A DNA stretch of 64,000 nucleotides, from positions 6,944,001 through 7,008,000 of the forward strand of contig OZ024748.1 of the NCBI GenBank assembly GCA_964016885.1, read 5' to 3'. Both the position numbers and the translations under genes were made by a program. Under the pieces are notes generated by a model that was not told the origin of the DNA, made no database searches, and worked only from the letters and a program-made list of their open reading frames with translations. Below are positions 4,931-63,223 of this stretch, piece after piece; position 1 is the first letter of the stretch, and every line of letters starts with the position of its first letter. This DNA is from Eledone cirrhosa. Its lineage: Eukaryota.

Positions 4931-5112
4931 AGTCGGGACCCCGACGGCTGAGCTCTTGCCGTTTCAACAGTTAGTTCCAGTTTGGAACTATCTGTTAAAA
5001 CAGCATGAGCTCAGCCGTCGGGTTCCCGACTCTTTATAATATAACCAAACTCTACTATCCCAAGTATCGAGTACTCTGTTGAATAATGGTCTAATCAGTT
5101 TCAAACTGAATC
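4931..5112 (+). mobile_element. Family A fold-back element
   Basis: Imperfect palindrome 4931-5032, apex TAGTTCCAGTTTGGAACTA (~4981), then tail ACTCTACTATCCCAAGTATCGAGTAC. Confidence 0.7.
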
Positions 5113-5847
5113 GATATATGTATATATATATATATATATATATATATATACATGCAGTAGGTACACTCACTCACACGCATATATAGATGTGTGTGGTGTG
5201 TGTATTCTTGGCTATGTTTGTTAGTACCCTCTATTATACACGAGCGTATATTTTGTCTAGGTACAAAGTTTTATATTTATTTACGGTCTATGATGTGGAG
5301 TCGGTCATACCTTTCCCAAATATATCGTTGCTTCAAAGGTGCACTTGCTTTCCAACTGCTATACTTTTATTTAATGGTTTTCACATCTTCTGACAATAGA
5401 TCTGCTGGAAAGTTCGGGCACATCTCCCAAAGCCTTAGTTCTCGTACCTGAGTTAATTCAGTGGTATTTGTATCTGTATGTGAGAAAATTTAATGAAATC
5501 AAATTACAAAACCAGGAATATAGATTGAATAATGAAAACAAAAACGACAACTTTCAGAGCTTAAATTTTCCTTTTAATGCAAGAAATAAAATAAAATATG
5601 AAGTAAAGTAGTATTGTAGTTCTTTAAATACATAACAATATATAATGATTTCTACTATAGACACATGTCCAGCAATTTTAGGGGGAGGGGAAAGTCGATT
5701 AAATTGACCCTGTAAAGATGAAAGGCAAAGCTAATCTTGGGATTTGAATTCAGAAATTAATACTTGGGGTGTAGAAGATCGAGTACAAAGAAATTAAATA
5801 TTCTATATTTACGTATATATATATATATATATATATATATATATATT

Positions 5848-6160
5848 TCGTTTCTGAATTTGTTTAACAAGATTCTTTATCTGAAAACGTGTGTTGAAAC
5901 CGATATTGTTATACTTTGGGAGGGTCATGTTGCCAATAAGAAATACACGCACCAGTTGCTTTCACTTCAATTTATTATAATAAATTTATAAATTTCTGGT
6001 TGGTTGGTTGGTTCCACAACCAGATGATTGTTTATATATTGTCAAAGTTCTTTCGTCACACATTGTGTGACCTCTTCAGTGACTGGGGATTCTTTTCTTT
6101 GTTTTTGTGCCTGTCCTTTGTTCTGTCCTACGCCATCTTGTTTTTTCAAAAGCGGATGAT
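5848..6160 (-). mobile_element. Family F (TA)n-embedded hammerhead element
   Basis: Near-identical in reverse to 47691-48105; fragments at ~48777, ~54490, ~56193; bounded by TA tracts. Confidence 0.75.
6041..6083 (-). ncRNA. Type I minimal hammerhead ribozyme (family F)
   Basis: Minus strand GTCA-CTGAAGA-G-GTCACAC(AAT)GTGTGAC-GAAA-GAAC-TT^TGAC: 4-bp stem I, 7-bp stem II, intact core, CUU site. Confidence 0.7.
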
Positions 6161-6620
6161 GATAATATATATATATATATATATATATATGTATATATAT
6201 ATATTCATTTAATGTACATATTAGTGGACATTATTCGACAATAAACTCAGTTTGTATAAAGTAGTATAAGTACTTTATGTGAAAGTTCCCGATGTGTGAC
6301 TTACTAATTATATTACAAAATAAAATATTTATCTAATAATGCTCTCTTCACACAATCATATTTGAAATGTAATTACGATATTTTACCAATTAGATACATT
6401 GTTCCATCTTTGAATTAGTTCTCACTTCATTTCACTCATTCTCCCATTCTCTCATTCTTGTGTAAATGCACACTTTACATAATTACACACAGACGCAGAC
6501 ACACACACACACACACACACACACACACACACACACACACACACACACACACACACACACACACACATATATATATATATATATATATATATATATATAT
6601 ATGTTAGGTAATATATATCA

Positions 6621-6817
6621 TTTAATATAGAAATGGCTTCTACAGTACTAGAGTTATTTCTTTCGAAGGAAATAATCAGGAAAGGCTGATGATTTCCTTC
6701 GAATGAAACAGCTCTAGTTCTGTAGAAGCCATTCTATATTAAAGCTTGTTATATATACTCTACTAATGTATTGAGTACCTTCCTTACTGTGGTTACACCC
6801 GATTGGACCCGAGACTG
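6621..6817 (+). mobile_element. Family B fold-back hammerhead element
   Basis: Palindrome 6621-6743; right arm CTGATGA(6686)-TTTCCTTCGAAT-GAAA-CAG...CTG-TA^GAAGCC; tail TACTCTACTAATGTATTGAGTACC...TGGTTACACCCGATTGGACCCG then (TA)n. Confidence 0.8.
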
Positions 6818-59110: not shown

Positions 59111-59640
59111 ATGTATGTATGTATGTATGTATGTATGTATGTATGTATGTATGTGTGTGTATGCTTGTATGTGTGTGTGTATGTATGTATGTATGTATGT
59201 ATGTATGTATGTATGCATGTATGTGTGTATGTGTGTATGTATGTATGTATGTGTGTATGTATGTATGCATGTATATATGTTTATATGTATGCATGTATGT
59301 GTGTATGTATGTATGTATGTATGTATGTGTGTATGCATGTATGTGTGTATGTATGTATGTATGTATGTGTGTATGCATGTATGTGTGTATGCATGTATGT
59401 ATGTATGTATGTGTGTATGTATGTATGTATGCATGTATGTGTGTATGCATGTATGTATGTATGTATGTATGTATGTATGTATGTATGTATGTGTGTATGT
59501 ATGTATGTGTGTATGCATGTATGTGTGTATGTATGTGTGTATGTATGTATGTATGTATGTATGTGTGTATGCATGTATGTGTGTATGTATGTATGTATGT
59601 ATGTGTGTATGTATGTGTGTATGTATGTGTGTATGTATGT
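59111..59640. repeat. (TATG)n microsatellite with TGTG/CATG variants
   Basis: Direct reading; source of the MYVC/HTYI ORFs. Confidence 0.95.
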
Positions 59641-61299
59641 GGTATCACTACCAGCACCACCACCACAACCACAACTTGCAGCAGTAACAACACTAGCCCC
59701 ACCATCACCGACAACACCACCTCCCCCAGCCAGCAGCAGCAGCAGTAGTAGTAATGATCTACTTTTCATGACTATGAAAAGATGGCAGTTGTTTTGTCAT
59801 GGTTGAACATAACCATTCCACGGTTGACTGGTGCACACACACACACACACACACACACACACACACACACACACACACACACACACACACACACACACAC
59901 ACACACACACACACACACACACACACACACACACATACACACACACACACACACACATACACACACACATATATATATATATATATCAAAGCAAATACAT
60001 TTAACTTACCTCTGTCTCTCTAATCAGACTTTTTTTCCCTTTTATCTATGGCTCTTCTTCTGTTCTTCTACCTTTCTTTGATCTCTCTCTCTCTCTCTCT
60101 CTCTCCCTATATATATATATATCTATATATGTATATATATATATATATATGTATATATATATATATGTATATATATATATATGTGTATATATATATATAT
60201 ATATATATATGTATATATATATATATATATATATATATATGTGTATATATATATATATATATATATATATATATATATATATATATATATATATATAACT
60301 CTTTCCACCGCTTTCTCTTTTGCATAACTTTTGCAAAATGCTCACCTGCAAGTGTTTGTGTGAGTGTGTATATAGTGTATATATATATATATATATATAT
60401 ATATATATATACTATTTGGTATGAATCGAAGTTGTAACTGCAATATAGCAAATATATTGGAAATTGAGTTTTCCGATAGGTCTCATCGGACTACCAATTC
60501 TAGATTTTGCTCACCTGTTCATTGGTGGAACACGTGTTAATTTAGTAATAAATGTTAGTCCTTTAACCGTGAAATTGTTATATTCATGTTACTTATTATA
60601 TTATATTTATATATATGTGGATGTGTGTGCATGTATATATATATATATATATATATATATATATATATATATATATATAGTAAAAAATTGAACGGGAACA
60701 AAACAGAGAGGCAGTACGAACAAAGGTTTATTAGGTTCATGCCCTTATTATTATTATATATATATATATATATATATATATATATATATATATATATATA
60801 TATATAATAATAATAATAATAATAATAATAGTAATAATAATAAATTTGAAGACTAAAATACAAAGTTTCAGAAGATCCCGTTAAGGGTGAAAGCAGCGAT
60901 TCTTTGCTTAAACTTTAATCTGTTATTTATATATATATATATATATATATATATATATATATATATATATATATAGGGAGTGGTATGGTTGATCACATTG
61001 ATGTCAGTATTTCAACCTAATGGTTATTTTATGGATCTTATTCTGCTGAATCTTTCCGTTGCCGTGTATAAAGCTATGATATACCCGTGAACGTTCTCTC
61101 TAATTCTCCAGTATGTTCTATATCTGGCTTTTCTTGTTTCGCTTTCCTTCGTTTTCCACTATTTACACAACACTCATATATTCAATTATATTCAATTATA
61201 AATAAAAAAAAATGTAGAATGTTCACGCTACAAAAAACAATCAGTGATTATTCATAAAACCATTATTATTTATAAAAACAAAATTATATTATCATTATC

Positions 61300-61635
61300 A
61301 TTAAATCCCGTTGAGGTTAATGTTGCCTTTCAACCTTACGGGGTCGATAAATAAAGTACCAGTAACGCACTGGGGTTGATTTAAGCGACTTTTCCCTCCC
61401 CTTAAAATTATTATTATTGTAGTTATTATTATTATAGTTATTAGTATTATAGTTATTAGTATTATAGGGTCGGACGCCATGCTTTGCAGCATAGAGTTAC
61501 GGCCCTTTATGGTCTGATATTCTAATCCCGCCGAGGTTAACTTTGCCTTTCATCCTTACGGGGTCGATAAAATAAAGTACCAGTAATACACTGGGTTAAT
61601 TGCTGGCCTTGTGCCAAAAGTAGAAACAATTATTA
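61300..61635 (+). mobile_element. Two SINE copies embedded in (ATT)n-rich sequence
   Basis: Core matches at ~61305 and ~61525. Confidence 0.82.
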
Positions 61636-62974
61636 TAGTTATTATTTTTATCATCATCATCATCATCATTATTTTATATCTTTATATATATAGATGTTTT
61701 ATTATTTTTTTCATAAACGTTTTGAGTCATTAATTTTCAATAACAGTCCCATTTGACATCTAACGCTTGAATAAGTTATAGGTAGGGTTGTCTCCCATGG
61801 AATGTCGGCTGGTTGCTTCAATTACTTTTTTTTTTATTTCAAAGTCAATCTATATATTTATACACAGCTCTTATTTATCTGCTTCTTCGCCAACATCATA
61901 TACATACAGATATACACGCATAGTTAGGTACACACATACGCACGCGCATACATATATATATATATATATATAGAGAGAGAGAGAGAGAAAGAGAGAGATA
62001 GATATATGTATGTATATATGTATTTATACGTATCTATATATACACAAAAACACACAAACACACACACACACACACAGACACACACATATATATATATATA
62101 TATATGTATGTATGTATGTATATATATATGTGTGTGTGTGTGTGTGTGTGTGTGTGTGTGTGTGTGTATGTGTGTGTGTGTGTGTGTGTGCGTACGATGC
62201 TCAAGCGCAAATGATAACTGCAAGTACAGTCAGTTGCTACACACACGCACAAACATACATATATATATATATGTACACAAACATATATATATATATATAT
62301 ATATATATATATATATATATATATATATATATATATATACATAGAGAGAGATAGAGGGGGATACACACTCAAAGTTACATATATTTAATATTCTTTATTG
62401 AGAGAATTAATTCCGCTTATATATACATATATACATATATATAACAATTCCTTCAATATATATATATATATACACATACATACATATATACAGACGTCGA
62501 TAGAAGGAGCAATCTGTAAGCTTAAAGGATGGTATTACTCTAGGATAATTATTATAGTAAGTAGATACTAAAACGACTATTAATGAAGAAGAATATTAAC
62601 TAGTTACGTCTGGTTTTATGGCTTATTTACGGCTAACCGTAACAGTTTATATACGTTTTATTTCGTTTGACAATTTCGATAACTTACACAAGACAAAAAT
62701 AAGATGTATAAAAACAATTAGAAAAACACATCAACAAAACACTTGCTTGATCATTGTTATATATATATATATATATATATATATATATATATATATATAT
62801 ATATATATATATATATATATATATATATATATATAGATATATATAGATAGATATAGATATATAGATAGATAGATATATATAGTGAGAGAGAGAGAGAAAG
62901 AGAGAGGGGGTTGTAAAGCCAATATGAATGGATACACACTCACTCGCACACAGACACACATATGTATACATATA

Positions 62975-63223
62975 TAATATAGAATAGACTTCTACAGGAC
63001 TAGAACTGTTTCATTCTGGAGAAATCATCAGGGCTTCCTGGTGATTTCTCCCGAATGAAACCGTTTTAGTCCTGTAGAAGCCATTTCTATATTAAATATT
63101 TATACTCGGCTATGTATTAAGTACCTTACTTTTTGTGGTTACCCCTGATTGAACCCGGGATAAACACACATATATATATATATATATATATATGTATATC
63201 CCGGGTTTAATCAGGGGTAACCA
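62975..63223 (+). mobile_element. Family B fold-back element with inverted copy of its 3' end
   Basis: Palindrome 62975-63094; GGCTTC-CTGGTGA-TTTCTCCCGAAT-GAAA-C...GTA^GAAGCC; 3' end 63136-63162 inverted at 63197-63223 across a TA tract. Confidence 0.8.

Follow-up and report, generated by a model that had tools for sequence, protein, structure and literature searches.

Among Penelope-like elements (PLEs), the Hydra clade, a group of PLEs with a C-terminal endonuclease (EN+), carries RW(R/K) and DKT motifs, a CxCX5C linker, and CxxC and CxH motifs around E/N residues, and an octopus family inserting in (TA)n, Hydra-1_Obim, appears in the supplement of the same paper (PMC8557442). Head-to-head pseudo-long terminal repeats (pLTRs) with an optional tail, and with TATA and initiator-like motifs within the pLTR, are described for Penelope of the rotifer Adineta (PMC3846280). 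Both papers state the formation of PLE inverted ends as an open question. In vitro, the PLE protein of the green anole (Poseidon) cuts and extends both target strands and starts at two sites (PMC11167929). We present here an analysis of a 64,000-nucleotide (nt) stretch of the Eledone cirrhosa genome (GCA_964016885.1, contig OZ024748.1, positions 6,944,001 to 7,008,000; hereafter the window), whose palindromes are head-to-head pLTR stubs of Hydra-like PLEs in (TA)n. These stubs probably formed when both cut target strands primed reverse transcription on uncleaved sense RNA and the copies, having run to its capped start, were joined.

Stubs and their two arms

A first-pass annotation of the window had listed 13 palindromes with fold-back apexes, and all are real: 13/13 sites are head-to-head arm pairs within (TA)n. 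A de novo palindrome scan recovered 10 of the 13, and the sites at 33815, 34720, and 38832 were read by eye; four further head-to-head pairs were found in the window (Table 1). The stubs belong to families A, B, G, and H. The window, with a GC content of 29% and rich in (TA)n, is part of a 3.0-Gb assembly.

The arms that were counted come from the window itself, from 96 stretches chosen at arbitrary coordinates, from 30 matches to a tail-only query, from 60 core-pattern matches, and from 60 stretches in listing order. Loci found with palindromic or open reading frame (ORF) queries (L001-030, L141-154, and L171-190) were excluded unless the arm was also present in a neutral locus, leaving 178 family A and 165 family B arms. 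The parsed sample covers about 1.9 Mb of the assembly, and patterns were counted genome-wide, with 37,160 matches to the exact core pattern of family A and 27,663 to that of family B. A DNA search with the family A tail alone gave no matches. Family H is represented by 8 arms, too sparse for mapping of a start site.

Tails are bimodal, ending about +20 or +97 from the predicted ribozyme cut in family A and about +15-23 or +89-95 in family B. The two lengths are paired within insertions, as the first-pass annotation had noticed: of 140 paired insertions, 120 combine long with short, 15 combine intermediate with short, 4 have two short arms, and 1 has two long arms. An A-run of at least 8 stands at the outer end of 11/53 short arms versus 2/63 long arms; slippage in these runs suggests priming at the short-arm outer ends, and priming in (TA)n, as first proposed, is upheld. 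Subfamily markers agree between arms at 244 of 251 sites (61 of 97 pairs with both arms anchored), so both arms derive from one RNA or from like RNAs. Gene conversion is an unlikely source of this identity, with 38 private single-arm changes against 4 shared.

The arms differ in their 5′ reach. Among the 120 long+short insertions, the short arm extends further 5′ in 67, the two tie in 12, and the long arm extends further in 41. Since a first strand that is short could not serve as template for the tail, two cDNAs must be invoked. The long arm of many copies consists of tail only, while their short arm reaches the inferred start (+1, below). One such case is the stub at 41229..41370, which for that reason fold-back could not have made. 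At L136 and L153, the short-tail arm runs for several kilobases versus about 400 nt.

5′ ends and the extra G

The 5′ ends pile up at +1. In family A, 131 of 159 ends lie within -4 to +9, and in family B 89 of 110 lie within -4 to +10, where about 17% would be expected if ends were uniform; the apexes are thus clustered, as had been claimed. The upstream edge is sharp in family B, with 5 ends at -5 to -1 and 50 at +1 to +5. Solo copies without an inverted arm end at the same base (L115), and the contigs of sequencing run X1 show a summed depth that increases about tenfold on crossing +1 and falls several hundredfold beyond the long tail, a depth that is not a copy number and comes from what may be the assembly's own sample. 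Arms continue beyond -60 in 33 cases in family B and 18 in family A. Apex position varies from copy to copy. Junction diversity is great within a single young subfamily, and certain junctions are found more than once, identical in every letter.

The position of +1 resembles a promoter start. Two pyrimidines precede it, and the sequence around it in families A, B, and G is initiator-like by comparison with the general initiator consensus. A TATA box stands at -29 to -32 in all family B subfamilies, although the spacer diverges, and a TATA-like run is present at -29 in some family A subfamilies. In families B and G, +1 is the first base of the 5′ strand of ribozyme stem I; in family A, the cluster lies in the stem II loop, about 9 nt past the helix and off any helix. 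The earlier placement of apexes at ribozyme helices therefore stands for B and G and is not general. The further proposal, that the ribozyme fixes where inversion happens, did not survive, as the pile-up follows the promoter-like +1 at ribozyme positions that differ between families. In B and G the apex would be at stem I because the RNA would begin there, and the ribozyme would not be the determinant.

An extra G at the 5′ junction is described as the cap-derived signature of full-length L1 insertions (PMC11702581), and a likeness to it is seen here. In the parsed sample, the share of arms with a non-templated G next to their end is 13 of 20 where the end is at +1, 10 of 21 where it is at +2, and 21 of 110 from +3 onward; a few of the Gs in these counts may belong to the partner arm. 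For each pattern, neighboring bases were also tallied manually in the first 100 matches of the listing, all from contig 1. Family A at +1 gave G 84 and A 16 (of 3,912 matches), and a control at +4 gave G 15, A 55, and C 30 (of 1,885); set as 84 of 100 against 15 of 70, the G is in excess at +1 (Fisher P 1e-16). Family B at +1 gave G 57, A 35, and T 8 (of 2,769), and family G gave G 62, A 25, and C 13 (of 2,366). The excess is confined to +1/+2, and nearly every extended copy has C or T as the parent base at -1. Families A, B, and G repeatedly show junctions in which both arms start from +1 with a G apiece and are separated by 0-4 bases. The extra G is present too in solo copies flanked by TA.

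Origin of the inverted arms

In the mechanism that we consider probable, transcription would start in the pLTR, so that the RNA would carry a pLTR copy at its 5′ end. Both nicked target strands would prime, one at the distal and one at the proximal fixed site. Priming at the 5′ pLTR copy would give stubs with only about 60-140 nt to copy, ending at the cap, and priming at the 3′ copy would give longer, randomly truncated arms. Both cDNAs would reach the capped transcription start, and their ends would be joined through 0-4 nt of microhomology or a few added bases.

Several points weigh against this mechanism. The reading of +1 as an RNA polymerase II start and of the G as a copied cap is drawn from genomic DNA. 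The G is on a minority of +1 arms: family A has 19,365 matches with a parent-compatible base at -1, and of the first 100 of these, about 36 continue upstream and the others, which lack the G, terminate at +1 to -5. Some of the counted Gs may be the partner arm's (about 15-20 of 62 in family G, 13 of 57 in B, and 10-15 of 84 in A). The family A edge is blurred, with 29 ends at -5 to -1; the TATA box is absent from some family A subfamilies and weak in family G, and the Drosophila virilis Penelope promoter is reported as TATA-less (PMC2377424). The automatic parser placed some arm ends wrongly by a few bases, and short arms too short for detection inflate the large-offset class. Neither arm is favored when the two ends are both within +40 (51 versus 41), and these counts also leave a leading and a trailing polymerase on one RNA unsupported.

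The likeliest of the rival accounts keeps two cDNAs and places at +1 either a structural stop or an end that is processed and uncapped, the extra base being a terminal-transferase addition. The minority of +1 ends with G and the A-rich additions at some of them agree with this account. Yet +1 is structurally unlike in family A versus B and G while initiator-like in each of these families, family B has conserved its TATA box at -30, and the G excess is specific to +1/+2; we regard this account as unlikely.

Self-priming of an antisense transcript, the published reading of head-to-head junction palindromes in the rotifer Penelope (PMC3846280), or remobilization of palindromic master copies, would suit the junctions that are identical letter for letter. 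However, each arm ends at the sense +1 and carries a sense G, junction diversity is very high in one young subfamily, and the same junction type occurs in three unrelated families and in different subfamilies, all of which makes these origins quite improbable.

The first-pass annotation had proposed that a single (TA)n-primed cDNA stalls in the folded ribozyme, snaps back on its hairpins, and copies itself. Such a fold-back was scored when the long arm reached furthest 5′, hairpin microhomology was present, and there was no insert, which left 7 of 120 junctions compatible. These 7 speak for it, as do the near-identity of the arms, the clusters in B and G that begin on the 5′ strand of stem I, and a few junctions that use stem I or cut-site complementarity (e.g., L122 and L127). 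Against them stand the 67 of 120 insertions with the short arm further 5′, where snap-back of the long arm is ruled out, the inserted bases parsed at 50 of the 120 long+short junctions, the junctions with G on both arms, the family A cluster in a loop, and the solo copies ending at the same base. Snap-back as the main route is thus very improbable, and its chances are slightly poorer than those of antisense self-priming or master copies. A nonautonomous miniature inverted-repeat transposable element (MITE) with fixed terminal inverted repeats, or an assembly artifact, is scarcely credible, for although the palindromes in TA are short and very abundant, their apexes vary, their ends are asymmetric, they are continuous with retroelement ORFs, and opposite-strand joints occur also in independently assembled run contigs, possibly from the same sample. 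Apexes that differ between copies indicate independent events, as the first-pass annotation had held, and not one ancestral MITE.

Two sense-templated cDNAs, the reading preferred here, may reflect a dedicated two-ended reaction in which a dimer primes both target strands, one per fixed RNA site, makes two cDNAs from the capped sense RNA, and links their ends, and in which the self-complementary stem III may pair two RNAs rather than cut. We advance this tentatively, at somewhat less than an even chance, and the pairing of RNAs through stem III loops is a speculative possibility. A two-ended reaction, if true, would account at once for the inverted pLTR, the one-sided tail, and the abundance of solo stubs. 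Young stubs, in their tens of thousands, are a natural readout of how inverted ends form, in a strict one-long/one-short rule, a fixed 5′ edge, and the G on both arms, and likely start sites can be mapped from these genomic copies.

L1 twin priming also uses the second target strand to prime a second cDNA; it inverts upstream sequence without duplicating the 3′ end, whereas both arms here copy the same segment. Poseidon (PMC11167929) resembles the reading here, with two reverse transcriptase (RT) starts bounding the tail, both strands cut and extended, a predicted dimer, and uncleaved RNA as the main template. In the available text of that study, the two starts are not tied to inverted arms and no 5′ end or cap is mapped; here there is one start per arm. 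The present reading connects genomic structure with that in vitro work of 2024, in which both strands are extended and synthesis has two starts. Adineta Penelope shares the pLTR arrangement and is explained by antisense self-priming (PMC3846280), whereas the present data favor two sense-templated cDNAs. The elements and the palindrome-plus-tail pattern were already known, and it is the reading of the mechanism that differs. That reading was not found within the scope of our search of the open-licence literature.

Hammerhead ribozymes

Type I hammerheads, including a U3-A8 core variant, are described for PLEs (PMC4209133). The fold of family B is that of a type I hammerhead: three helices, a CUGANGA/GAAA core, and an NUH triplet. 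Among 39 distinct copies, each helix pair is kept in 35-39 and the canonical core in 32; loop II is variable, and stem I shows a compensatory C-G/A-U change. Family A has a three-way fold with a U3-A8 core in most of 18 extended copies; its stem II shows a change from G-C to A-U and has a long loop of about 35-40 nt. Nearly every copy of the family G hammerhead (34135-34181 in the window) has A in place of U at core position 4. The loops of stem III are self-complementary. Rfam scans of the family A and B parent regions gave no hammerhead match, and an Rfam scan of the window gave none among the 150 of 550 matches listed, which were mostly microRNA matches to TA/CA repeats.

These motifs share with the described PLE hammerheads the type I form, an unpaired base before stem II, a palindromic loop III, paired motifs on opposite strands, and U3-A8, and differ in the long stem II loop of family A and the A at position 4 of family G (PMC4209133). 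Cleavage in families A, B, and G is predicted from sequence and fold. The putative family A start lies inside the stem II loop, so a 5′-terminal RNA copy would lack the core.

Copies pass the predicted cut site, as first noted, and their templates were mostly uncleaved; the circular template offered there as an alternative is unneeded, since uncleaved linear RNA suffices. Ends near the cut comprise 140 genome-wide matches, long arms of one B subfamily starting around it. By hand count, about 33 of about 73 nonmutant rows lie no more than 2 nt upstream of the cut and about 40 fall on the next 6 positions, a weak excess that is confounded by microhomology. Among tail-selected family B arms, 3 of 30 start at the cut. 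Cleaved templates are at most a small class.

Element identity

Families A and B are linked to RT-GIY-YIG ORFs, and the PLE origin given in the first-pass annotation is confirmed by stubs continuous with such ORFs. On its upstream side, family B runs into a 3′ untranslated region (UTR) and an RT-GIY-YIG ORF; downstream of the tail is the next ORF. Locus L174 holds, in order, an inverted long-tail copy, a pLTR with hammerhead and tail, a 758-codon RT-EN frame, and a short-tail copy downstream. The 758-codon frame has RWR, DKT, the CxCX5C linker, and CxxC/CxH motifs; its protein has 430 homologs, the best about 40% identical and most of them unnamed, and its Pfam GIY-YIG match is weak (E 0.026, below the cutoff). 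Upstream of family A is a piece of a related ORF, with 47% identity, that has the CxCX5C linker and CxxC/CxH and does not cover the RWR/DKT region. Hydra-clade endonucleases lack a CCHH finger; here, between the GIY- and YIG-like motifs, there is one Cys in L136 and L186 and two in L174. No full-length family A element was present among the loci examined, and ORF-bearing copies are outnumbered by stubs by orders of magnitude.

The label Hydra-like, assigned by motifs, (TA)n target, and pLTR hammerhead, is a provisional placement. With the Hydra clade the elements share these three features, the inverted 5′-truncated copy, and the one-sided tail (PMC8557442). That clade is described as generally shorter than 3 kb with a tail of 30-40 nt, whereas the same-strand hammerheads of L174 are about 4.8 kb apart, owing to a long, microsatellite-rich 3′ UTR, and the tails here are about 70-77 nt (PMC8557442). 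A Neptune label was discarded once the Hydra-clade motifs matched. A MITE was rejected on the lack of fixed terminal inverted repeats or a single internal sequence. A non-LTR retrozyme (head-to-tail hammerhead monomers without an ORF) was also rejected, as the copies here are solo or head-to-head and continue into PLE UTR or ORF.

Features of the window

Table 1. Coordinates of stubs, arms, and other annotated pieces in the window
Feature	Position	Strand	Description
Family A stub	4931..5091	.	Long-tail arm (+) from putative +1 (4979); short arm from ~+5
Family B stub	6618..6815	.	Short arm to ~+4; long arm from core (+7); 2 extra junction bases
Family B stub, second subfamily	11937..12116	.	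Both arms from +8; blunt junction at 12063
Family A stub	26002..26189	.	Short arm (+) from +1 (26132); long arm (-) from ~+11
Family A stub	26492..26626	.	Junction inside stem III; short arm further 5′ than long arm
Family H stub	33696..33865	.	Long arm (-), short arm (+)
Older family A stub	34674..34800	.	Short arm to ~+3; long arm to ~+12
Family A stub	38774..38967	.	Long arm (+) from +2; short arm from ~+4, 3-nt duplication
Family G stub	40599..40791	.	Short arm to +6; long arm from ~+21
Young family B stub	44340..44540	.	Short arm (+) from +1 (44474); long arm (-) from ~+5
Complete hammerhead in short arm of 44340..44540 stub	44474-44524		Predicted cut after 44518
Family A stub	47430..47625	.	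Short arm (-) to +1 (47480), extra G at 47481; long arm from ~+4
Family A stub, two short arms (rare class)	51524..51636	.	+ arm from +1 (51579); preceding G ambiguous
Family B stub	62976..63162	.	Long arm (+) from +2; short arm from ~+6
Unlisted family A stub	4769..4893	.	Long arm ends within tail; ribozyme 3′ half in short arm
Unlisted family A stub	41229..41370	.	Short arm (-) to +1 (41287); long arm is tail alone
Unlisted decayed family B stub	12669..12829	.	
Unlisted older family B stub	44598..44744	.	
Family G arm	34084..34222	+	Continues upstream of +1 (34135), exposing parent sequence there
SINE-like pieces	2886-3077, 9566-9860, 25822-25943, 51817-52195, 57353-58051, 61304-61636		

Past the stub at 63034, across a (TA)n run, lies a short second inverted copy of the family B tail tip (63135-63200). 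Stubs of different PLE families lie within or adjoin each other's (TA)n flanks, and some are fused without a spacer (L116, L135, L186, and L193). A further TA-inserted family with a CUGAUGA motif is present at 10281-10433, 46474-46624, 11783-11869, and 14632-14722, and two related copies bearing hammerhead-like core motifs, at 31033 (-) and 40452-40585, form another family.

Two ORF pieces at 58310-58687 and 58816-59280 (-) resemble a non-LTR retrotransposon with a restriction-like endonuclease, presumably R4/Dong-like by its motifs, and gave no Pfam match. An abundant family resembling short interspersed nuclear elements (SINEs) accounts for 15 nonpalindromic pieces with AT-rich tails. Calling of tRNA genes across the window returned none. 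Long minisatellite arrays occupy 18950-21417, 27668-29300, 53266-54304, and 1381-2145.

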